DNA from: Bacteroidales bacterium
GTDB taxonomy: Bacteria; Bacteroidota; Bacteroidia; Bacteroidales; DTU049
Assembly (NCBI GenBank): GCA_012520175.1
Contig: JAAYOU010000001.1
Coordinates: forward strand, 14,544 to 78,543
Length of the DNA stretch: 64,000 nt
Direction of reading: 5' to 3'
Shown piece by piece: positions 3,240 to 48,399 of this stretch; within the stretch, counting starts at the first letter, position 1; the number at the start of each line of letters is the position of its first letter. The notes below the pieces were generated by a model that saw only the letters and a list, made by a program, of their open reading frames with translations, was not told the DNA's origin and searched no databases. Position numbers and translations under genes: made by a program.

Positions 3240-3462
3240 ATTGCGTTTGTTGTGTAACTAACAGCCGCGTAGCAACTACTTAATTATCAACAGTTTACGC
3301 AGACAGACACATAGCATTAGACACTCGTAACCATCTATGTATCAATGACTTACACGGGCGACAGACACAAATCAGGCTAACACCTCGCAACCACTTGATT
3401 ATCAGCACTTTATATAAGGCCGACACACTAAAAACTAAGCATTAAACACTCAAAACTCAAAA
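3240..3462. repeat. Intergenic repeat cluster R2: 3 palindromic units plus heptamer modules
   Basis: Cores at 3282-3290, 3336-3344 and 3397-3405. Positions 3335-3407 are nearly identical to 1461-1533. The tail cactaaaaactaagcattaaacactcaaaactcaaaac is the reverse complement of GTGTTRA-type heptamers. Confidence 0.85.
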
Positions 3463-5454: not shown

Positions 5455-6063
5455 TTAATCACAATTACAACCTTGCGAAAAATAAATTTTAGTTTCTGGT
5501 AAAAACGATTCTATTATTTTTTGTTTTTCAACAGACATAAAAATAACTCGCATGTCTAAGTGTTTTAATGTATTGCTTATTTTTCCTATTTCTCTAGGCA
5601 ACATATCTACCAAATTTCCCCACAAGTCCAAGACTTCAAGATTATTCAAATTTCCAATTTGCGGTGGAATCTCTACAATTTCATTTTGGTTTAAAACAAG
5701 TGTTTGCAACTCAGTGCAGTCGCCAATTTCAGCAGGCAACCTAGTAATTTTATTCCTTGATAAATTTAAAAATCTTAATTTTTTAAGCGCTCCAATAGAA
5801 GGCGGAATTTCCTCAATTTTATTACGTTTTAAGTCAAGATATATCAAGTTTTCACACTGAAAAATAACATCAGGAAAAGATTTTAATTTACTTTTTGACA
5901 AATCTATATACTTGACACTATCAGGATTTTGAGCAATTAAATTTATATCTGTATAAACAACTTTATTGGAAATATCCATAAAATATTCCTTAGGCAAATT
6001 CTGTGCAAATGCCGATATTGTCAGCAAATTCAAAAAGAAAATATTTATTATTTTTTTCAGCAT
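5455..6063 (-). CDS. Secreted leucine-rich-repeat (LRR) protein
   Basis: Signal peptide, then about 6 tandem 23-aa LRRs of the form LxxLxLxxNxIxxIPxxIG (for example NLIYLDLKRNKIEEIPPSIGALKKLRFLNLSRNKITRLP). Confidence 0.85.
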   Translation of the reverse strand: MLKKIINIFFLNLLTISAFAQNLPKEYFMDISNKVVYTDINLIAQNPDSVKYIDLSKSKLKSFPDVIFQCENLIYLDLKRNKIEEIPPSIGALKKLRFLNLSRNKITRLPAEIGDCTELQTLVLNQNEIVEIPPQIGNLNNLEVLDLWGNLVDMLPREIGKISNTLKHLDMRVIFMSVEKQKIIESFLPETKIYFSQGCNCD

Positions 6064-6998
6064 GTTCTCCCAAAATATTTAAACGCACTATCTCTGTCTT
6101 TCCGAATCTGCATCACCAATTCCTCTGATGATGAGAATTTTTTTTCACTTCTTAAAAACAACAATAATTCTATTTTTAACTGCTCACCATAAATATTTTC
6201 ATTAAAATCAAACAAATGAACTTCTACTTGCATTTTTTGCCCATTAAAAGTGGGTCTAGTTCCAATGTTCAGCAATCCTTGAAATACTTTTGATTTATAA
6301 AAAACATTTACGATATACACTCCCGATACGGGTATTAATTTTTCCTTGCATGAAAGCTCAATATTTGCTGTTGGAAAGCCAAGTTTATTGCCTAAATTAT
6401 AACCTTTTGAAACAGAGCCTGACAAAAAATATTTGTATCCAAGCATCTCGTTTGCAAAGGCAATATCGCCCGACAACAAAGATTTTCTAATTTTTGTAGA
6501 ACTTATATCAAAGCCAGAATTACAAACAGCCGCTATTTGAAAAAGATTAAAAGAAAATTTATTACTTAAATTATTCAACAAATCAAAATTACCAACTCTA
6601 CCTTTTCCAAAAAAATGGTCATGTCCGATAACTAAATTTTTCAATTTTAATTTTTCAACTAAAAAATCCTCCACAAATTGCTCTGCAGAAAGCGAAGAAA
6701 AATCAGTTGTAAAATTTTGTACAAACAAAAAATCTATCCCATATTCGCTGATTAGCTCAGCTTTTTCGTTTATATCGGTAAGAATTTTCACATCTTCTTT
6801 TCCTGAGCTAACAATATTCCTAGGATGAGAGCCAAATGTAAACACTATAGAATGTAGATTGTTTTTTTCAGAGACAAATTTCAAATATTTCAAAATTTCG
6901 CCATGTCCCCGATGAACGCCATCAAATGTTCCTACCGTAACACATGTGCCCCCTTTAATCTTTTCGGACAACTCATTTATATTTTCAACAATCTGCAT
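6057..6998 (-). CDS. ribF: Bifunctional riboflavin kinase / FMN adenylyltransferase
   Basis: GTFDGVHRGH nucleotidyltransferase motif. C-terminal riboflavin kinase region (GFPTANI, PVSGVY, IGTRPTF, EVHLFDF). The track start at 7019 is a TTG; I prefer the ATG at 6996-6998 (MQIVENI...). Confidence 0.9.
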   Translation of the reverse strand: MQIVENINELSEKIKGGTCVTVGTFDGVHRGHGEILKYLKFVSEKNNLHSIVFTFGSHPRNIVSSGKEDVKILTDINEKAELISEYGIDFLFVQNFTTDFSSLSAEQFVEDFLVEKLKLKNLVIGHDHFFGKGRVGNFDLLNNLSNKFSFNLFQIAAVCNSGFDISSTKIRKSLLSGDIAFANEMLGYKYFLSGSVSKGYNLGNKLGFPTANIELSCKEKLIPVSGVYIVNVFYKSKVFQGLLNIGTRPTFNGQKMQVEVHLFDFNENIYGEQLKIELLLFLRSEKKFSSSEELVMQIRKDRDSAFKYFGRTC

Positions 6999-23374: not shown

Positions 23375-24056
23375 TGCTGCCTGCTCAGATTTAGCGCTGC
23401 TGTACCCACATAAATTGTTGATAATCAAGGAGTTATGTCGCGGCGACTTCGCGTGGTCGCGGCGACGTAAGGCTCTGATAATCAGGTAGTTATAAAATAG
23501 TGTTGAGTGTTAAGTGTTAAGTGTTGAGTGTTGAGTGTTGGCTCGCTATTCGCTCGCTATGCCGCGTAAATCGTTGATAATCAGCGAGTTATGGGTAGCA
23601 GCTTCATGTGGCGGCGGCTTCGCGTAAAGTGCTGATAATCAAATAATTACACTTATTGCTAAACTGAATAACTTTTCTGCAAAATTTTTTGTAAATTTTA
23701 AAATACAAAAAATTTTGCAGAAAGAATTTGCGAATAAGTTTTTATCACTACTAGCCTGCATGACAGCCCCACTTATATAAGCCTTTGATAATCAGTGAGT
23801 TACGAGCCGCCGCTTTACCTGTCTCAGTTGCTTACTTTGCTTGTTTGTCCGCATAAGTAACTGATTATCAGATAGTTATGGTGGCGACTTCAAGTGGGCG
23901 CGGCGACGTAAGTTGTTGATACACAGACAGTTACGAAAGCAACAGTCTCTTTCAAACTTTATAAACTTTGCAACTTTATACTCAATCAGTTACAAAACCG
24001 TGACCAAATCAGATAACATTATGACAATCAATCAATTACAAACACTCACCCAAACC
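23375..24056. repeat. Intergenic repeat cluster R5 (largest): 7 palindromic units, a heptamer array, a long palindrome and CTTTCAAACTTTATA modules
   Basis: TGATAATCA-type cores at 23419-27, 23476-84, 23575-83, 23633-41, 23786-94, 23862-70 and 23916-24. Each is preceded by GC-rich (g)tggcggcg.c..cgtaa and followed by agtta(t/c)g. Confidence 0.9.
23500..23541. repeat. Tandem heptamer array (GTGTTRA) x6
   Basis: gtgttga gtgttaa gtgttaa gtgttga gtgttga gtgttgg, followed by the direct 9-mers gctcgctat tc gctcgctat. Confidence 0.9.
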
Positions 24057-41142: not shown

Positions 41143-41421
41143 ATGAAAAAAGAATATATTGCGGAACTTTTCAAGCAATTTGAAGATGCTTGTTATGATT
41201 ATGAGGGAGTAGAATGTTGGAGTGCAAGAGAGCTACAAGGCATTCTTGGATATTCTCAATGGAGAAATTTTAAAAACGTAATTGATAAAGCTCAAAAATC
41301 ATGTAAACAAGCAGGTGAAGACACTAAAAACCATTTTGCTGAATTCAGCAAGATGGTCGAAATTGGGAGCGGTGCGCAAAAACGCAATATAAACTCTCGC
41401 CTTTTGGGAAGAAATACATAA
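41143..41421 (+). pseudogene. Truncated DinD-like (DNA damage-inducible protein D) N-terminal fragment
   Basis: ECWSARELQGILGYSQWRNFKNVIDKAQKSCKQAG...HFAEFSKMVEIGSGAQKR parallels the first ~90 residues of E. coli DinD (from memory). Full-length DinD is about 3 times longer. This ORF ends after unrelated residues. Confidence 0.55.
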
Positions 41422-42161: not shown

Positions 42162-43343
42162 ATGAACACAGAAGTAACTGCACGCATCATTTTGAGAACT
42201 GGAAAAATAGAATCCATCAACCGTTTTCACCCATGGGTGTTTTCGGGAGCAGTAAAGCGAATTGAAGGAACTCCTGAAAATGGCGATTTAGTTGAACTTT
42301 ATGACAATCACGACCATTTTTTAGCACTTGGACATTACAACGAAGGTAGCATTATTGCTAGAATTTTAAGCTTTGAAAAAACTCAAATTAATGAAGATTT
42401 TTTTAAAGCTAAATTCGAAAAAGCATGGAATTACAGAAAAAATTTAGGATTACTCAACGAAAGCAACAATGTTTTTCGGCTAATACACGGCGAAGCAGAT
42501 GAATTACCTGGACTAATTATTGATTTTTACAATGGAGCAGTGGTGTTAGAATTTCATTCTAAAGGAATGGAGCTACTTTCTCAAATCATTGCAAAAGCAT
42601 TAAGCGAAACTTGCGATTCCCAAATAAAAACAATTGTTTCTAAAAGCAAAAATACCAAAGAAGATAAAGCGAAATTAGAATACGGAAACGCTATTGAAAT
42701 GCCGCATATAATCACAGAATTTGGAAATAAATTTTACGTAAACTGGGACGATGGGCAAAAAACAGGCTTCTTCATAGACCAAAGAGACAATAGACAGCTA
42801 TTAAAGATGTATTCGGAAAACAAAAATGTCCTAAACATGTTTGGATACACCGGTGGATTTTCCGTATATGCTCTTGCAGGCAAAGCTAAGCAAGTAACTA
42901 CTGTTGATAGCTCCGAAAAAGCAATAGAATTATGCAGAAAAAACATAGAGCTAAATAATTTCGATTCAACGCAAAACCATTGTATAGCAGAAGATGCTCT
43001 GGATTTTTTAAAAAATATGCCAAATGACAAGTATGACATTATTGTTTTAGACCCGCCAGCCTACGCAAAACGCTCAGATGCAAGGCATAATGCTATTCAA
43101 GGATACAAAAGGCTAAACGCAGAAGCTCTTTGCAAAATCAATAAAAATGGCTTGCTGTTTACATATAGCTGCTCTCAAGTTGTTGAGCAAAATCATTTTT
43201 TAGGAGCCGTTACTGCGGCTGCAATATCAGCAAAACGAAGAATAAAAATCATTAAACAACTTACGCAAGCATCTTGCCATGCCCACTCAATTTTCCACCC
43301 AGAAGGATTTTATTTAAAAGGACTAATGCTGTTTGTAGAGTAA
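42162..43343 (+). CDS. rlmI: SAM-dependent 23S rRNA (cytosine-C5) methyltransferase RlmI-like
   Basis: An N-terminal PUA-like region (HPWVFSGAV), QKTGFFIDQRDNR and LDPPAYAK motifs, and a 393-aa length. Confidence 0.85.
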   Translation: MNTEVTARIILRTGKIESINRFHPWVFSGAVKRIEGTPENGDLVELYDNHDHFLALGHYNEGSIIARILSFEKTQINEDFFKAKFEKAWNYRKNLGLLNESNNVFRLIHGEADELPGLIIDFYNGAVVLEFHSKGMELLSQIIAKALSETCDSQIKTIVSKSKNTKEDKAKLEYGNAIEMPHIITEFGNKFYVNWDDGQKTGFFIDQRDNRQLLKMYSENKNVLNMFGYTGGFSVYALAGKAKQVTTVDSSEKAIELCRKNIELNNFDSTQNHCIAEDALDFLKNMPNDKYDIIVLDPPAYAKRSDARHNAIQGYKRLNAEALCKINKNGLLFTYSCSQVVEQNHFLGAVTAAAISAKRRIKIIKQLTQASCHAHSIFHPEGFYLKGLMLFVE

Positions 43344-43444: not shown

Positions 43445-44467
43445 TCATTCATTAAAATTCATTTGTGCACGAATTTGAGCAATTTCTTGTATTAACTCTT
43501 CTTCAGTAGGGATGTAAAGTTTATATTTTGTGGCAAATAATTTTTGACTATCATTTAAAATAGAGAAACGAACCTCTGCTTTATCTTTTTCTTCGCACAA
43601 TATAATTCCTATTGTAGGATTATCTCCTTCTGTTCGTTTCAATTCATCATACATCCGTACATACATATCCATTTGCCCAATATCTTGATGTGTAAGTTTT
43701 CCTATTTTCAAATCAACCAAAACAAAGCATTTCAAAATGTAATTATAAAAAACCAAATCAATATAATAATGCGAAAGTTCTGTATTTATACGTTGTTGTC
43801 GTGCAACAAATGAAAATCCTTTTCCAAGTTCCAACAAAAATTTTTGCAAATTATCTATAATTGCTTGTTCAATCTGACTTTCATTATGTTTTTGATTTTC
43901 CTTCAAATCATAAAAATCCAACACAAGAGGATCTTTTAAGATAAAATCTTGCGGATTTAAAGAAAGTTGTTTTGAATTTTTGGAATTCAACTCATTCAAG
44001 CTTTCTTTATGTGTTGAAATAAGCCTTTCATAATAATGTTTATCTACTTGTTCATCTAAAAATCGCGTATTCCAAGCATTATCAGCTGCTTCGTTCATGT
44101 AAAGTTCTCTTGCTTTAGGATTTTCCACTCTGATTAACGAACGATAATGCGTCCAACTCAATTCTTTACGCAATGCGTAAACATTTGGAAATTGCTGATA
44201 AAATTTACGCATATTGGTAAGATTAACATAAGTAAAACCTTTTCCAAATTCTTTTTGCAAACGCTCTGAAACTGACATTAATAGTCTTTTGCCATATTGA
44301 GCATACTGCTCTCCAGCTTGTTCTTCAACGATTTTTCTGCCTATATGCCAATAAGTTTCAACCATTGTAAAATGAGCAGTTTCATAGACTTTTTTACGAG
44401 CATTTAAAATCAATTCTCTTGAGTATTGATACAAATTGCTGTTGTCAATATTTTCAATTTCTAGCAT
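43445..44467 (-). CDS. DUF1016 / YhcG-family PD-(D/E)XK nuclease
   Basis: N-terminal YhcG-like region (ARKKVYETAHFTMVETYWHIGRKIVEEQ; MRKFYQQFP). C-terminal nuclease core IDLVFYN...FVLVDLKIGKL. The track start at 44485 is a TTG. The ATG at 44465-44467 lies 5 nt downstream of the preceding stop. Confidence 0.85.
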   Translation of the reverse strand: MLEIENIDNSNLYQYSRELILNARKKVYETAHFTMVETYWHIGRKIVEEQAGEQYAQYGKRLLMSVSERLQKEFGKGFTYVNLTNMRKFYQQFPNVYALRKELSWTHYRSLIRVENPKARELYMNEAADNAWNTRFLDEQVDKHYYERLISTHKESLNELNSKNSKQLSLNPQDFILKDPLVLDFYDLKENQKHNESQIEQAIIDNLQKFLLELGKGFSFVARQQRINTELSHYYIDLVFYNYILKCFVLVDLKIGKLTHQDIGQMDMYVRMYDELKRTEGDNPTIGIILCEEKDKAEVRFSILNDSQKLFATKYKLYIPTEEELIQEIAQIRAQMNFNE

Positions 44468-44472
44468 TGTAA

Positions 44473-44694
44473 TTAATTTGAACAAAAATCACCTTCTGTT
44501 GTAAATTTATCAAGTTTATCAATAATTTGATCTGCGTTAATGTCAAAACCTATATCCCTAAGAGAATAAATAACATATACTAATTTTCCATATGCCTTCT
44601 CTCCTGACTTTGAAAGTCCTGCATATTCTAAGTACGGTTTTTTAGCTCCAAGTTCTTGTAAAACTTTAAATAAAGCATTACTATCTTCCAACAT
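44473..44694 (-). CDS. 73-aa hypothetical protein, translationally coupled between two nuclease genes
   Basis: Its ATG at 44692-44694 overlaps the upstream stop (ATGTTGGAAGATAG, a 14-nt overlap). Its stop lies 5 nt before the next ATG. No recognisable domain. Confidence 0.55.
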   Translation of the reverse strand: MLEDSNALFKVLQELGAKKPYLEYAGLSKSGEKAYGKLVYVIYSLRDIGFDINADQIIDKLDKFTTEGDFCSN

Positions 44695-45607
44695 AATTTT
44701 TTGCTTTTTCAGTTAATGAATAAAGTCCCCTGCCTGTCCTTCTAAAAAGATGCATATTATCTATGTGCATACTATTATCTTCGTGTTTATTTAATTCACC
44801 TCTAATTGTATTAAAAATAGTACCCATTTTCATTTTTAATTTCTGTTCTTCAACTATTTGAGGAATTTTAACATACAATTCTTTAAGTGAAACTTCGTTT
44901 ATTCCTAATTTATTTTTTTCTAAAATAAACTCAATAATAATTTTTTTTAAAGACGGAACTGTACCTGGCAATCTTAACTCTTCTTCCTTAAGTTCCTTTA
45001 TTTCTTTTTGAATACCTTTGTCAGAAACACTTTCTGCTTTTTCAATTTCTTTTTTTATCCCTCCGTATTTTAAAATGTATTCTCTACTTGGCTTAAAAAC
45101 ACTATCTGTGAACTTGATTTCGTTATAGATTGCTTGTAATTGAGAAAAATACTTTGGTTTGTCTTCTCTAAAAACACTATTTACCTCAAAATTAGAAGTT
45201 AACCCACCTCTTGTCAAATTTGAAGAACCAATTACTGAAGTAAATTTTGTGTTTTTTGAAACAGCAGTTTCAAACAAATAAATCTTAGGATGAAAAATCA
45301 AATCATTATAATTATCTCGTTTGTCTCCAAAACAATAAAAATTAAAATTTTTATAAGAATCTTCTATTCCTCTTAATGCCAATAAAGCTTTTACATCAGT
45401 AGTTTTAAAATCAAGTCCAACAATAATTTCAATTATGGCATTATTCACAGTCATAGCATATTCAAAAGATTTAAAAATTTCATCAATACCTGTTTTTCGT
45501 ATAAAAGCAACAGCTATTTGTACTCGAGTACTTTCTATTAATTCACTTTTTAAAACATCTACAAGCGAATAATTTGTATTAGATAATATTTGAATTTTTT
45601 CTACCAT
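44681..45607 (-). CDS. Single-HKD phospholipase-D-family nuclease (NgoFVII/BfiI/Nuc-like) with a C-terminal HARE-HTH-like winged helix
   Basis: HKD motif IFHPKIYLFE...VIGSSNLTRGGL (H at residue 111 of the track ORF). The C-terminal ~80 aa (KKIIIEFILEKNK...SLKELYVKI...LFRRTGRGLYSL) resemble HARE-HTH. The track start at 45622 is a TTG; I prefer the ATG at 45605-45607. Confidence 0.8.
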   Translation of the reverse strand: MVEKIQILSNTNYSLVDVLKSELIESTRVQIAVAFIRKTGIDEIFKSFEYAMTVNNAIIEIIVGLDFKTTDVKALLALRGIEDSYKNFNFYCFGDKRDNYNDLIFHPKIYLFETAVSKNTKFTSVIGSSNLTRGGLTSNFEVNSVFREDKPKYFSQLQAIYNEIKFTDSVFKPSREYILKYGGIKKEIEKAESVSDKGIQKEIKELKEEELRLPGTVPSLKKIIIEFILEKNKLGINEVSLKELYVKIPQIVEEQKLKMKMGTIFNTIRGELNKHEDNSMHIDNMHLFRRTGRGLYSLTEKAKNYVGR

Positions 45608-45924
45608 AATATTAAACTGCAATAAATTATCTTATATTCAAATCTTTATATTTTTTTCATAAACAAAAAATTTTTTTGGTATGAACTCAAAATAAAACCC
45701 GTTTTCACCATCACATACTTATCCGAACTAACTTTATTATAATTTTTTATGTAGAAAACACCAAGTTATCGCAATATATTCACCAAATGCAGTTGTCATT
45801 CTACTTATAAAATTAAAATTGTCAATTTTTGACAAATTTAAGTAAAAAATTTAGTTTAGTAAAAATTTTTATTGTGTTATATAAACAAACTAACATGACT
45901 GTAGTTGCTTTATAAAAGCCAATA

Positions 45925-46135
45925 ATAATCAGCAAGTTAGAGCAGCGAACAGCCTACATGGTGCAGTGACGTAAAGCATTGATAATCAATAGGTTATGTG
46001 CGGCGGATGCTATGTTTATCTGTCTCGCCCCGCTCGCTTAAAGTGTTGACAATCAAGGAGTTACAGGGTCGCGACCGTTTCACCTGCCTGCTCGCATAAA
46101 ACACTGATAATCAAGAAGCTACAAATATAGGCAAA
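45925..46135. repeat. Intergenic repeat cluster R6a: 3 palindromic units
   Basis: Cores at 45980-88 (gacgtaaagcattgataatcaataggttatg), 46047-55 and 46105-13, with GC-rich spacers (gcggcggatgc, gggtcgcgaccg). Confidence 0.85.
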
Positions 46136-46149
46136 AGTTATTGCTCTCA

Positions 46150-46497
46150 CTTATGTGTACTTCTGCTTTCAGCGAAAGTACTTTTGCTCGGTAATACCGA
46201 AATAAATTTCGCTATTACTCTCGCGTATCAGTACTTTTCTTTTTCATTGCAAAAAGAAAAGATACCAAAAGAAAAGCTATTCGCGGGAGAATTTACCTGC
46301 GCAAACGGCAGCCACCAGCCACAGCCAAAAATAACTCGCTGATAGGAATTTTTATTAAATTATTCCAGCTCAAACAGACTTTTGGCATTCGCCGTTTTTC
46401 TTCGTTAATGTTTTTTTGATTATATTTTTACGAAGAAAAACTTCGCCAACCCTGCCTTGCCGTTTGCTTTTTCAGGTAAATTCTATTGCGAAGTTTG
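46150..46497. other. Highly structured non-coding element: 2 short hairpins plus a ~220-nt nested long hairpin
   Basis: Hairpin gtaataccgaaat-aa-atttcgctattac (46191-46219, 12 of 13 bp paired). Hairpin cttttcttttt-cattgc-aaaaagaaaag (46235-46262). Outer inverted repeat agaatttacctg..gcaaacggca (46288-46310) against tgccgtttgc..caggtaaattct (46459-46483). Inner inverted repeat gtttttcttcgt (46394-46405) against acgaagaaaaac (46430-46441). Confidence 0.6.
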
Positions 46498-46499
46498 GC

Positions 46500-46615
46500 T
46501 ACTACCTGTCGTGTGCTTGTGTCCGCCCGCGTAAGTCGCTGATATACAGACAGTTATGTGCTGCCGCCCGTATAAAATCTTGCCTCAGACGTAAGTAATT
46601 GATAATCAATTTTTA
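46500..46615. repeat. Intergenic repeat cluster R6b: 2 palindromic units
   Basis: gtccgcccgcgtaagtcgctgatatacagacagttatg (core 46540-48) and cagacgtaagtaattgataatcaat (core 46600-08). Confidence 0.8.
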
Positions 46616-46677: not shown

Positions 46678-48399
46678 TTAATTCAGCACTTTTTTTAATT
46701 CACTTATTAATAGTTCTTTTCGCTTTTCAATATATTCCTCAAAGTTTTTCAATTCTAAGTCTACATTTGGGATTAAATGACTTTCTAAGAATTTTTCCTT
46801 ATCGAAATTTTGGGTTTGCTCATCTACCCATTCTTTCAACGATTTGTCTTTTTTCGACATATTTTCATTTGCATCCAACATTTGAAGATTATAAATAGAA
46901 TTATAAGTCCACCATCCATATTTTTCCTTCAAACCGTCAGTCAAATTATCATAACTTGCTGCTGGATGGATGTGGTCTTTATGAAAGTTATTGTTTTTAT
47001 AATCAAGGTTTGGATATAAAACTGAAAGTATTGAAAATGTGTATTGGTCGTCTTTTTGAGAGGACAATAAGTCTTCAATAAATTCATCACCAACAGTCGT
47101 GTCTTTCTTTATATTTTTATTTATATCGTTTACTGGAAATTCTGTTATTTCAGGTTTAATTTTCAAGTTCTTAATGTCTGATGTAAAAGCTTTTCTTATT
47201 TGAGTTAGAATAGAATCTGCTTGACCACCAAATATTTTCTTAATCAATACAATATGCAACCATTTTTTTATTATTTCCCGTTCTTCCTTAAATTCAATTT
47301 TAGTTGAGTAATCTCTATATATTTGCTTATGATATAAATAATAAACAATCGGAATTATTGCATTCTTAGAAGTCAAAGTATAATCTGTAAATCCGTATGT
47401 TTTCAATAAATCAAAGGCAGATAATATTGCATCTCTAATTTTCTCCCATTCTGTTTCAAATTCTTTTGCATTATCCCTTGAAAAATTAGTAACTCTAAAT
47501 TTAATGTCTTTACTGTATAAAAAAAGGAACGTTTTGAGAACTAAATCTTTTGAAATTGAAAAGCCTTTATCTCTGACGGAATCAACAAGTTTATGAATTT
47601 CCTTTCTAGCATCTTTTTCTGTCCAATTTGCAACTGCAATTGACATAAGCAAATCAGAAAAATTTAAAGGCTCTCCACCACTATTAATTCTAATAAAGAT
47701 ATTTAGGGCTTTATCCAAATCTTGCTCTTTTTCAAGAAAATAATTTATGATTCTATCTGAATGAATTACTTCCTGCAAACGTGCCAAAATATCAATTGAA
47801 AATTCAGAAAGTCCATTGTCAGTTACATACTTATTGAATTTAGATATATTTTTTAATTCTAAAATTTTACCGACACGAAACCATTTATCTTTATAAATTT
47901 CTGCTTGTTTAGTGTCAGAGTCTTTTAAGAAGCTAAACTCATAAGTTCTACCATCTTCTTGTTCTTCAAGTGTTGATGCAATATTCAGATATAATCTTCT
48001 TGTTGGGATACTCCATTCTGAATTTTCCCATTTTCTGCGATATTCTTTATATGCATAGCTACCCTTTAGTCCCACATACAAAGAAGTTAATCTTTGTTGT
48101 CCGTCAAGAATTGCATTAAAAGACCCCATTCCATCAGTTGAAATTTCTTCATTATGAGTTTTGTATCTCTCTCTATATTCGTTAATGAATTTGTAAAATC
48201 TGTAGCCACTTACAGATGCTCCTTCTACATTCCAAAAAAGAAAAGAACTAATTGGATAATTTCTCATTAAAGAATCAAAAAGCCATTCAATTTTTGAACT
48301 TGACCAAACAAATTCTCGTTGAATAGCTGGTAATAAGAATTTATTATTTTCTATATTTTCAACTGCTTCAGCTATAGTAATTGGAGTTTGAAATGACAT
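46678..48399 (-). CDS. DUF262 + DUF1524 (GmrSD-like) nuclease, candidate type IV modification-dependent restriction enzyme
   Basis: N-terminal DUF262/ParB-like region (FLLPAIQREFVW, YPISSFLFW, DGQQRLTS). C-terminal His-Me-finger-like region (HKDHIHPAA ... NLQMLDANENMSKKDK). Confidence 0.85.
   Translation of the reverse strand: MSFQTPITIAEAVENIENNKFLLPAIQREFVWSSSKIEWLFDSLMRNYPISSFLFWNVEGASVSGYRFYKFINEYRERYKTHNEEISTDGMGSFNAILDGQQRLTSLYVGLKGSYAYKEYRRKWENSEWSIPTRRLYLNIASTLEEQEDGRTYEFSFLKDSDTKQAEIYKDKWFRVGKILELKNISKFNKYVTDNGLSEFSIDILARLQEVIHSDRIINYFLEKEQDLDKALNIFIRINSGGEPLNFSDLLMSIAVANWTEKDARKEIHKLVDSVRDKGFSISKDLVLKTFLFLYSKDIKFRVTNFSRDNAKEFETEWEKIRDAILSAFDLLKTYGFTDYTLTSKNAIIPIVYYLYHKQIYRDYSTKIEFKEEREIIKKWLHIVLIKKIFGGQADSILTQIRKAFTSDIKNLKIKPEITEFPVNDINKNIKKDTTVGDEFIEDLLSSQKDDQYTFSILSVLYPNLDYKNNNFHKDHIHPAASYDNLTDGLKEKYGWWTYNSIYNLQMLDANENMSKKDKSLKEWVDEQTQNFDKEKFLESHLIPNVDLELKNFEEYIEKRKELLISELKKVLN

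Follow-up and report, generated by a model that had tools for sequence, protein, structure and literature searches.

A PLD-winged-helix nuclease cassette and an unrelated YhcG nuclease gene in the probable remains of an AlwI-family restriction-modification operon of a Bacteroidales bacterium

The DNA analysed here is a stretch of 64,000 nucleotides from a Bacteroidales bacterium (hereafter the window). It carries three adjoining minus-strand ORFs, which encode a PLD-winged-helix nuclease, a protein of 73 amino acids and a YhcG nuclease. These ORFs and the features around them are as follows:

43445..44467, minus strand: YhcG/DUF1016 PD-(D/E)XK nuclease gene, 340 aa, identified with Pfam and PADLOC
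44473..44694, minus strand: 73-aa ORF, translationally coupled to the PLD gene; modelled as three helices with a short hairpin
44681..45607, minus strand: PLD-winged-helix nuclease gene, ATG start, 308 aa, identified with Pfam, AF2, Foldseek and homologues
44693..44702, minus strand: downstream copy of the direct repeat AAAAAATTAT, overlapping the ATG of the 73-aa ORF
45688..45738, minus strand: remnant of a 362-aa AlwI-family gene, found by tblastn and blastn against loci L001-L005
45739..45748, minus strand: upstream copy of the 10-bp direct repeat AAAAAATTAT, bounding the PLD deletion
45773..45799, minus strand: remnant of an XRE-HTH controller-like gene, first 9 codons
45819..45840, minus strand: putative operon promoter/operator region, retained; aligns upstream of the XRE-HTH gene in L001-L004
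46678..48399, minus strand: GmrSD-like gene (Pfam GmrSD_N, PADLOC HEC-05)

An earlier note on this DNA had described the three ORFs as a translationally coupled nuclease operon and a candidate new defence system. The ORF check confirmed all three ORFs and the coupling geometry: the ATG of the 73-aa ORF lies 14 nt within the PLD gene (ATGTTGGAAGATAG), and the YhcG ATG lies 5 nt past the stop codon of the 73-aa ORF, with an alternative TTG at 44485 that would give a 13-nt overlap. Pfam and motif analyses bore out the assigned identities, namely a single-HKD PLD nuclease, an orphan small ORF and a YhcG PD-(D/E)XK nuclease. Since the identical 14-nt overlap of the PLD gene and the small ORF recurs in relatives, the packing is not due to chance. 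The three ORFs are intact and the operon promoter is seemingly retained, so the genes may still be co-transcribed, and some functional interplay between them may exist. Two nuclease genes packed closely about a small ORF do not amount to evidence of a system.

The PLD gene could also start at a TTG (45622), but homologues favour the ATG start (MxxKIQIL). As the earlier note had stated, there is a single HKD motif, with one copy per chain (H106-P-K108-IYLFE ... G127-S-S-N130, ATG numbering). In the motif HxK(x)4D(x)6G(S/T)xN, all 25 homologues have the same H, K, G, S, S and N, while the D position is occupied by E, D, S or H. Pfam matched PLDc_2 (31.7 bits, cut-off 27) and the N-terminal PLD domain of RE_NgoFVII, and the AF2 model (pLDDT 85) has a PLD fold, for which Foldseek gave a probability of 1.00 to SauUSI, NucT, Nuc, PLD3 and the NgoAVII R-protein (7CLG, 6EHI, 1BYR and 4RCT at E values of 1e-9 to 3e-5). 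A database search returned 719 homologues. The one HxK...GSxN motif, borne by the N-terminal about 170 residues, is a likeness to Nuc/NucT, BfiI, the NgoAVII/NgoFVII R-protein and the PLD domain of SauUSI; the sequence similarity to single-HKD nucleases is slight (27-32 bits against Pfam, and no match among PDB sequences). The protein also differs from the single-HKD restriction nucleases compared in that it has no helicase or ATPase partner. The DNA-binding domain of BfiI and NgoAVII is B3-like, whereas a winged helix is found here.

The C-terminal domain (residues about 220-300) consists in the AF2 model of three helices and a beta-hairpin (helices 220-233, 241-254 and 261-274, strands 288-292 and 295-298; pLDDT 82-97), and on this model it is a winged helix of generic type. 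The HARE-HTH tail proposed in the earlier note was not recovered: Pfam gave no match to PF05066 with the full protein (E<=0.1) or with ten isolated C-terminal domains (E<=10). Six of these ten domains matched DUF7669 (PF24706) at E values of 0.006-0.05 and 14-17 bits, where the gathering score is 23 bits. When the domain was aligned with the DpnI winged helix by hhalign, the helices were in register at a probability of 0.8% (E 0.07), and DpnI was not among the PDB profile matches of the domain at E<=10. PDB profile searches with the whole PLD protein and with the C-terminal domain gave nothing meaningful.

Compared with five relatives, the 73-aa ORF shows substitutions mostly at third codon positions (e.g., 17:10:4), and it has 35 database homologues with a length of about 72 aa; it is therefore a real gene. 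The protein has no match in Pfam, NCBIfam or PADLOC, and a Foldseek search of its model against the PDB found nothing below an E value of 6. In L001-L005 and L084 a small ORF comes directly after the PLD gene, and in most of the 79 genome loci of the family survey a small coupled ORF does so. These small ORFs are of at least six families: 53 of them were assigned to six unrelated families, none of which was above the cut-off in Pfam. A single superfamily was rejected because all pairwise hhalign probabilities were <=10%, and so was the idea that the small ORF of family c0 is the split-off N-terminus of the downstream AlwI-like protein, since there was no match. The family to which a small ORF belongs corresponds better to the downstream gene (c0 with AlwI; c1 and c2 with N6/N4 methyltransferase) than to the PLD clade. 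In several loci, including those of H. pylori, the PLD gene is intact and a small ORF of the recognised families is absent.

YhcG matched DUF1016_N (1.2e-39) and YhcG_C (1.4e-55) in Pfam, and IDLVF...VLVDLKIGK supplies the D...(D/E)xK motif. It matched the PADLOC PDC-S02 models over its full length, with E values down to 1e-129. It is an ordinary member of PDC-S02 with no difference, and so already carries a name. We read the 'S' in PDC-S02 as denoting a single-gene candidate; the defence function of PDC-S02 is a candidate label, for which we know of no experiment. Synteny of the trio across genomes did not hold either: YhcG lies behind the small ORF in only one of the 79 related loci (L001, where it is followed by the start of the M2 methyltransferase gene). 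Its slot is held by a Fic gene in L003 and L004, and elsewhere the slot contains Fic, methyltransferase fragments or nothing. YhcG is a separate cargo gene, equivalent to PDC-S02.

Upstream of the PLD gene, the window retains pieces of a longer operon. In close relatives, the PLD gene and the small ORF of this operon are preceded by an XRE-HTH gene and a gene for a 362-aa AlwI-family protein, and they are followed by complete or fragmentary N6/N4 methyltransferase genes. The XRE-HTH remnant reads MTTAFGEYI, against M(E)(A/T)NFGEYI in the relatives; the full gene in L002 encodes 108 aa (Pfam HTH_3). In front of it, TAAATTTG (45840-45833) agrees with TAnnTTTG, the -7 box pattern of Bacteroidota, and the palindrome TTGTCAAAAATTGACAA lies at 45835-45819; L001-L004 share a conserved TAnnTTTG(T)CAAAA ahead of the XRE-HTH gene, which suggests that the region acts as a promoter. 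The AlwI-like remnant corresponds to about codons 70-86 (about 17 codons, NKVSSDKYVMVKTGFIL), and about 820 bp of the gene are missing between the remnant and the PLD start. The 362-aa gene is intact in L001-L005, and its product has no catalytic part. Membership in the AlwI family was settled via intermediate homologues: direct hhalign of the 362-aa protein against AlwI gave a probability of 10%, but jackhmmer from a full-length AlwI-like seed recovers it, P0163 matches positions 7-169 of the RE_AlwI profile and P0166 continues into positions 120-441.

The methyltransferase of these operons is intact in L002, truncated in L003-L005 (M2 without the DPPY motif) and absent in L084. None of the relatives' DNA methyltransferases has a related gene in the whole 64 kb of the window; the product of the gene at 42162-43343 combines PUA with a SAM-dependent methyltransferase domain, both of the RNA-modifying kind, and we read it as RlmI-like. 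The window thus holds no classical type II restriction-modification (R-M) pair, in which a cognate DNA methyltransferase adjoins the nuclease. The statement of the earlier note that no methyltransferase is nearby, and hence that this is not a classical type II R-M pair, therefore stands for the window only, since the operon of the closest relatives carries XRE and AlwI-family genes and N6/N4 methyltransferase genes or fragments.

The boundaries of the PLD gene and small ORF as a unit were defined by three independent comparisons that agree (window with L002-L004, L084 with L002, and L002 with L086). Homology between the window and L002-L004 spans 45623 to 44467-44485, and apart from L001 the DNA homology to close relatives ends at the end of the 73-aa ORF. 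L086 has a PLD-free operon in the order C, AlwI R, M1 and M2, in which 5539-6775 is replaced by 7972-9152 of L002. The cassette is thus about 1.15 kb long; it starts about 16-29 nt before the PLD ATG and ends with the small ORF, and relative to the L086-type operon it replaces the nuclease portion of R together with the 5' third of M1. L002-L005 and L084 have the PLD gene and the small ORF but no YhcG, and in L084 the pair is without any partner, as may also be the case in H. pylori.

The same three genes in the same order were found in several samples of the same species. In three other same-species samples (L081-L083), which are 98.8-99% identical to the window, the whole PLD gene is lost through a 1046-bp deletion between the two copies of AAAAAATTAT, so that window position 45739 is joined directly to 44702. 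These strains keep the 73-aa ORF and YhcG. Therefore, the expectation that the PLD gene is without lesions in close relatives failed. The earlier note had listed four outcomes beforehand as speaking against a new three-part defence system, and three of them were found: the trio is not syntenic, YhcG already has a name, and sister strains have lost the PLD gene. In a near-identical contig (L080) the small ORF is 44 aa long and the GmrSD-like gene is in fragments; since the coverage of this contig is 1.28x, these differences were not counted as decay.

The proposed defence-island setting was upheld by the GmrSD-like HEC-05 neighbour and by a GC content of 25-29% versus 35% in the flank. The GmrSD-like gene is outside the operon, from which it is separated by 1 kb of interspersed repeats. 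No Rfam families were found in 40-50 kb of the window, and no homologues were found on plasmids or phages.

In the 79 surveyed loci, mostly from metagenome bins, an AlwI-family gene lies within 4 kb of the PLD gene in 34, a methyltransferase is nearby in 48, and one or the other is present in 60; a methyltransferase elsewhere in those genomes is possible. Many loci have the cassette between the methyltransferase and R genes. No PLD-winged-helix-AlwI fusion was present among the best 150 of 2247 representative matches, the longest of which is 447 aa. The PLD gene has pairwise dN/dS values of 0.04-0.17, and those of the window gene (0.10-0.17) show no clear relaxation. Between L003 and L004, which both have the Fic insertion, dN/dS was 0.12 for AlwN (dS 0.45) and 0.05 for PLD (dS 0.33); both genes are under purifying selection despite an M2 without DPPY.

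Taken together, these results suggest that the trio is probably made up of a nuclease cassette of two genes and an inserted nuclease gene unrelated to it, lying in what is left of an R-M operon. We consider it likely that the locus arose by stepwise erosion of this operon, the order of the deletions being our reconstruction, and that two unrelated nuclease modules now sit in the wreck of an operon derived from an AlwI-family type IIS R-M system. One module would be the cassette of the PLD-winged-helix gene and the small ORF, whose ATG lies inside the conserved last PLD codons, and the other would be YhcG, cargo inserted at the position after the small ORF. The window would have lost the operon at either end and, of the flanking operon, would retain only the promoter, 9 codons of HTH and about 17 of AlwI. 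The anatomy, synteny, erosion and selection described above are observations; the biochemistry of the PLD cassette, the small protein and YhcG that follows is our inference. Two PLD subunits would pair to form one HKD active site, with DNA held by the winged helix, and YhcG would act alone. The small protein, made in a fixed ratio, may be a lineage-specific partner or regulator. Self-protection of the PLD enzyme would be independent of an operon-encoded methyltransferase, which would mean that it either is guided by a partner, namely the AlwI recognition protein that has been lost here, or responds to DNA modification. The PLD gene and small ORF without a partner in L084, and possibly in H. 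pylori, weaken the view that an AlwI-like protein is needed. As a tentative extension, which we would rather doubt than assert, a promoter-less mobile PLD cassette may colonise AlwI R-M operons and sometimes replace the cleavage domain of R, which would give a two-protein, methyltransferase-independent enzyme regulated by the small proteins.

The locus can also be read in other ways. An obligate three-component defence system, with the 73-aa protein as an adaptor that bridges the two nucleases, would fit the tight spacing (the 14-nt overlap and the 5-nt gap), the single retained promoter upstream and the recurrence of the gene order in L001 and in several same-species samples. It is very improbable given that YhcG is adjacent in one locus in 79, with Fic, methyltransferase fragments or nothing in its place elsewhere, that the strains without PLD keep the other two genes, that L084 has the pair without YhcG, and that YhcG matches what is read as a single-gene candidate. 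Another idea is that the PLD protein is a toxin of a toxin-antitoxin or abortive-infection module, held in check by the co-translated small protein, with the small-ORF families as alternative antitoxins; its embedding in R-M operons would then mirror PrrC, which guards a type I R-M locus. A conserved nuclease followed by coupled small ORFs of at least six unrelated families, the location between methyltransferase and R genes in many loci, and the loss of the nuclease with retention of the small ORF (the harmless direction) are consistent with this idea. It is nevertheless unlikely: an antitoxin gene usually precedes the toxin gene, and here the small ORF is downstream; several loci, including H. 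pylori, have an intact PLD gene with no small ORF of a recognised family; the small-ORF family follows the downstream gene rather than the PLD clade; and the 73-aa protein matches no fold or family. The difficulty of expressing published PLD-winged-helix genes in E. coli would also suit a toxin; purification of the published enzymes failed as well, and no explanation was found (PMC11037411).

A further reading is an autonomous, modification-dependent (type IV-like) module that is active here, in which the winged helix would recognise a base modification, for instance N6-methyladenine, and the PLD dimer would cut nearby without a partner or methyltransferase, the small ORF being an accessory and YhcG and the GmrSD-like gene independent neighbours. 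The PLD-winged-helix fusion endonucleases Aba4572I and CbaI were proposed to be N6-methyladenine-dependent type IV enzymes (Helbrecht et al. 2024, PMC11037411), and both were reported to be toxic in vivo in E. coli; the toxicity of CbaI depends on Dam+, while Aba4572I is an outlier that is toxic in Dam- cells under induction (PMC11037411). They share the PLD-then-winged-helix architecture and have similar neighbourhoods (methyltransferase, PLD-wH and hypotheticals, or REase, PLD-wH and a hypothetical; PMC11037411), and they may belong to the family found here. The survival of the pair alone in L084 and beside dead methyltransferases in L003-L005, under purifying selection, and the high conservation of the winged helix across loci with different methyltransferase classes also argue for such a module. 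Against it, the winged helix shows no significant similarity to that of DpnI (the hhalign probability of 0.8% above) and its domain has no sequence match in the PDB. In addition, 30 of the 79 loci have a D12 (Dam-class) methyltransferase gene directly upstream and on the same strand, which would bring a reader of methylated GATC into self-conflict. The published set is found in another context, mostly near type I methyltransferases (PMC11037411), whereas the family here is near D12 or N6/N4 methyltransferases and AlwI-family genes. On balance, we regard the type IV-like module as possible without being likely.

The preferred reading, a cassette in an eroded AlwI-type operon, was also compared with known systems. 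The relatives share an XRE controller, an AlwI protein and two N6/N4 methyltransferases with AlwI-family type IIS R-M systems (AlwI, N.BstNBI and Nt.BspD6I). Nt.BspD6I has a separate small cleavage subunit, and a recognition protein with a separate nuclease subunit may be a parallel to it. In contrast to those systems, the nuclease here has a PLD fold and not PD-(D/E)XK, the catalytic part of AlwI is replaced, the methyltransferases are truncated in L003-L005, and the window retains only about 17 AlwI-like codons. The DpnI cassette of Streptococcus pneumoniae, which swaps with an R-M cassette, contains dpnC, for an endonuclease with a winged helix, and the small gene dpnD. The order of a winged-helix restriction nuclease followed by a small gene may be comparable, but the DpnI nuclease is PD-(D/E)XK and the one here is PLD, and no sequence similarity was detected. 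A literature search for AlwI together with PLD or HKD returned only general reviews.

These results show that erosion intermediates of a restriction operon still circulate in the same species. A pair of a highly conserved PLD-winged-helix gene and a small ORF that occupies fixed positions in AlwI operons and persists under purifying selection after the death of the methyltransferases could interest restriction-enzyme specialists, and the absence of a small partner or an AlwI-type partner is a possible reason for the failed expression and purification of the published PLD-winged-helix enzymes. If the mobile PLD cassette is real, it would represent a kind of restriction system not yet described, with members in Bacteroidota, Spirochaetota, Patescibacteria (candidate phyla radiation), archaea and H. 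pylori, in which the truncated AlwI recognition protein, under purifying selection, would be the reader and the PLD protein the cutter.

The window carries three tightly packed minus-strand ORFs, and the translational coupling that the earlier note had claimed for them is real, with the ORFs, the 14-nt overlap and the 5-nt gap all found. These genes and their neighbours are as follows:

44681-45607, minus strand: PLD gene (single-HKD nuclease), 308 aa from the ATG
44473-44694, minus strand: 73-aa ORF, with its ATG 14 nt inside the PLD gene
43445-44467, minus strand: YhcG gene (DUF1016 nuclease), 340 aa, with its ATG 5 nt past the 73-aa stop
46678-48399: GmrSD-like gene upstream of the PLD operon, 573 aa, apparently intact, PADLOC HEC-05 (3.5e-219)
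42162-43343: flanking RlmI-like RNA methyltransferase gene, 35% GC

The GC content is 25-29% across the island compared to 35% in the flanking RlmI-like gene. The YhcG gene matches Pfam DUF1016_N (1e-39) and YhcG_C (1e-55), and the PADLOC models identify it as candidate PDC-S02 (1e-129); it already bears a candidate name. Within this 5-kb island, the GmrSD-like HEC-05 protein is a second candidate for a stand-alone modification-dependent nuclease.

In Pfam, the PLD protein scores 31.7 bits against PLDc_2 (cut-off 27) and 27.8 bits against the NgoFVII N-terminal PLD domain (cut-off 23.8). Database searches give 719 homologues, which almost all have 304-313 aa and come from Bacteroidota, Treponema, Cloacimonadota, candidate-phyla-radiation (Patescibacteria) bacteria, archaea and Helicobacter pylori. 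In an alignment of 25 members, H106, K108 and G127-S-S-N130 are invariant, and so are large parts of the C-terminal domain (IRGEL..., LFxR...Y.L). In the AlphaFold2 model (pLDDT 85), a PLD fold makes up the N-terminal part and is followed by a helical linker, and the three helices and beta hairpin modelled at the C-terminal end form a predicted winged helix (hence PLD-wH). Foldseek gave a probability of 1.00 to SauUSI, NucT, Nuc, PLD3 and the NgoAVII R-protein. The gene identities proposed earlier (PLD, YhcG and a domainless 73-aa protein) stand, except for the HARE-HTH label of the PLD tail, which is unsupported since ten isolated C-terminal domains had zero matches to it in Pfam even at E<=10. 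Sub-threshold DUF7669 matches were found in 6 of these 10 domains, a PDB search with a profile of this domain returned no relative, and its alignment to the DpnI winged helix was in register and not significant.

Synteny was examined in 79 genome loci fetched around PLD homologues. Homologues of the 73-aa protein are present only in the five closest relatives (L001-L005, 69-85% identity), directly after the PLD gene every time, and the whole family has 35 database members, each at least 69% identical. Substitutions cluster at third codon positions, which indicates that the 73-aa ORF is a real gene. YhcG follows the small ORF in a single locus of the 79, the 3.9-kb Proteiniphilum contig L001, where the start of a methyltransferase lies directly after it. 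At the DNA level the window is homologous to L002-L004 from 45623, 16 nt 5' of the PLD ATG, to 44467-44485 at the end of the small ORF. The next gene is a Fic gene in L003 and L004 and a methyltransferase fragment in L005 and L002, with an intact methyltransferase behind it in L002. Since the methyltransferase start in L001 directly follows YhcG and the slot differs in the other relatives, YhcG is independent cargo placed into the slot and does not form part of a conserved trio, and the idea that the three genes are inherited as a unit fails on this synteny. The Fic/DOC gene (L003:9129-9905, L004:3787-4563) occupies the exact slot of YhcG in the window and L001, between the small ORF, whose stop it overlaps by 4 nt, and the methyltransferase gene, which lost its 5' end to the insertion. 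By these comparisons, the slot after the small ORF seems to behave like a cargo-gene hotspot.

Upstream of the PLD gene, L001-L004 carry a 108-aa XRE-HTH gene (Pfam HTH_3) and then a 362-aa gene, whose end lies 3 nt short of the PLD ATG; in L005 the corresponding gene is present (396 aa as called) and the HTH gene is not detectable. The 362-aa protein itself has no Pfam match. A protein 54% identical to it (P0163) matches positions 7-169 of the RE_AlwI profile, and P0166 (494 aa, named AlwI family type II restriction endonuclease) is 78% identical to its residues 176-354 and extends beyond the shared part into the catalytic region of the profile. In addition, jackhmmer from a full-length AlwI-like seed retrieves the 362-aa proteins. 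Taken together, these similarities place the 362-aa protein in the AlwI family. The contigs carrying P0166 (L086-L088) contain a PLD-free operon (L086:4148-8078) with the order HTH (108 aa), AlwI-like gene (168 + 494 aa), M1 and M2, both N6/N4 methyltransferases. The split of its AlwI-like gene into two ORFs is seen in three independent assemblies (L086, L087 and L088), so that the gene is either a pseudogene that became fixed or one that naturally encodes a two-part enzyme.

A DNA comparison of L002 with L086 shows that the PLD gene and small ORF (L002 7972-9152) stand in place of L086 5539-6775, between flanks that are 85-87% identical; the displaced piece covers the last 315 AlwI-like codons and some 97 codons from the start of M1. 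In L084 the cassette stands by itself, a PLD gene (81% identical) with a 72-aa ORF, between a TPR gene, located downstream of gyrA, and a response-regulator gene, and identity to L002 (93%) spans exactly this cassette, the third comparison with the same boundaries. These results indicate that the PLD-wH gene and its small ORF are the conserved unit, and that a methyltransferase once belonged to the operon ancestral to the window locus.

The 64-kb window has no homologue of the relatives' methyltransferases and none of the intact HTH gene. The earlier note's statement that no methyltransferase lies nearby, and that this is not a classical type II restriction-modification pair, holds only for the window: the relatives' operon has N6/N4 methyltransferase genes or fragments of them. 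Three remnants lie 5' of the PLD gene:

45840-45833, TAAATTTG, with a palindrome at 45835-45819: putative promoter/operator region
45799-45773: HTH gene remnant, first 9 codons
45738-45688: AlwI-like gene remnant, ~17 codons

In three independent same-species assemblies (L081-L083, 98.8-99% identical), window position 45739 is joined directly to 44702 by a 1046-bp deletion bounded by two copies of AAAAAATTAT (window 44693-45748; L081:369-378). The AlwI scrap and the entire PLD gene are lost and the 73-aa ORF and YhcG are kept, so the PLD gene is dispensable in this species. By comparison with its relatives, the window locus appears to be an eroded operon remnant, of which the species shows two stages of erosion. 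The deletion puts the old operon leader against the 73-aa ATG, and the presence of the PLD gene is polymorphic within the species.

Copies of an interspersed repeat whose palindromic core is TTGATAATCAA (21 matches compared to 5.8 expected) form four intergenic clusters (1404-1531, 3280-3405, 23418-23795 and 45968-46610). The 1 kb that separates the GmrSD-like gene from the operon remnant holds four copies of a ~23-nt repeat unit and has a GC content of 36-41%, above its surroundings. A 92-aa Bro-N-domain ORF lies at 41143-41421 (plus strand), and the same position in L081 (L081:3768-4584) is occupied by genes for 131 aa (Bro-N) and 142 aa; in 13 of the 79 loci a Bro-N gene lies directly upstream of the PLD gene.

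Most of the 79 loci have an ORF of 45-150 aa starting -26 to +26 relative to the PLD stop. Fifty-three of these small ORFs sort into six families that are unrelated by BLAST, give pairwise hhalign probabilities of <=10% and have no match in Pfam. Because the -14 start codon sits in the conserved end of the PLD gene (N-Y-[VEDAG]-G-R-stop), coupling is preserved and the ORF body replaced. The family follows the downstream gene better than the PLD clade, with c0 found with AlwI-like genes and c1 and c2 with N6/N4 methyltransferases. The model of the 73-aa protein (pLDDT 81) consists of three helices plus a hairpin and has no structural match, and the protein has no hit in Pfam, NCBIfam or PADLOC. 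In L056 (969-1403), a c2-type small ORF is fused in frame with a shortened N6/N4 methyltransferase bearing the DPPY motif, a sign that a small ORF may in some cases merge with the downstream gene.

Methyltransferase and AlwI-family genes around PLD homologues
D12-class methyltransferase gene upstream, same strand: 30/79 loci
N6/N4 methyltransferase gene nearby, nearly always downstream: 25/79 loci
AlwI-family gene within 4 kb (downstream, full-length; upstream, N-terminal part only): 34/79 loci
Methyltransferase or AlwI-family gene, either: 60/79 loci
Neither: 10/46 loci whose flanks each reach 2.5 kb or more, five of the 10 being H. pylori

The downstream full-length AlwI-like proteins keep the catalytic-type motif D...E.T...Q...E...RHL. 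In six H. pylori loci (L060, L061, L064, L065, L067 and L070), the PLD-wH gene (44-45% identical) lies between two genes, one for a multi-pass membrane protein of 355 aa that we read as LptF/G-like and one for a product of 388 aa that looks like an outer-membrane protein. Five of the six have no methyltransferase and no recognised small ORF; a 402-aa AlwI-like gene is retained downstream in L070, and the PLD gene is truncated in L067.

The closest published description, of enzymes that may belong to the same family, is the set of 27 PLD-wH fusion endonucleases of Helbrecht et al. 2024 (PMC11037411), of which Aba4572I and CbaI were tested and failed at expression/purification. The reported neighbourhoods are methyltransferase, PLD-wH, hypotheticals and REase, PLD-wH, hypothetical (PMC11037411). 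We found no paper connecting AlwI-family genes with PLD nucleases.

The cassette may encode a partner-directed enzyme, a modification-dependent enzyme, or an enzyme restrained by the small protein. A three-gene system of PLD, 73-aa protein and YhcG is very unlikely given the single co-occurrence among the 79 loci, and is ranked last. Ranked second is a toxin-antitoxin-like pair of the PLD and small proteins. We rank first a nuclease with no need of an operon methyltransferase. The DPPY motif is missing from M2 in L003-L005, and since L003 and L004 share the Fic insertion, M2 was probably truncated already in their common ancestor. Between these two loci, dN/dS is 0.12 for the AlwI-like gene (dS 0.45) and 0.05 for the PLD gene (dS 0.33). 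Such low values since the truncation indicate that the unit of AlwI N-terminal part, PLD gene and small ORF has remained functional without a methyltransferase encoded in the operon, which counts against a simple methylation-protected restriction enzyme. For the nuclease ranked first, either an AlwI-type partner would direct the enzyme or its own winged helix would read DNA modification.
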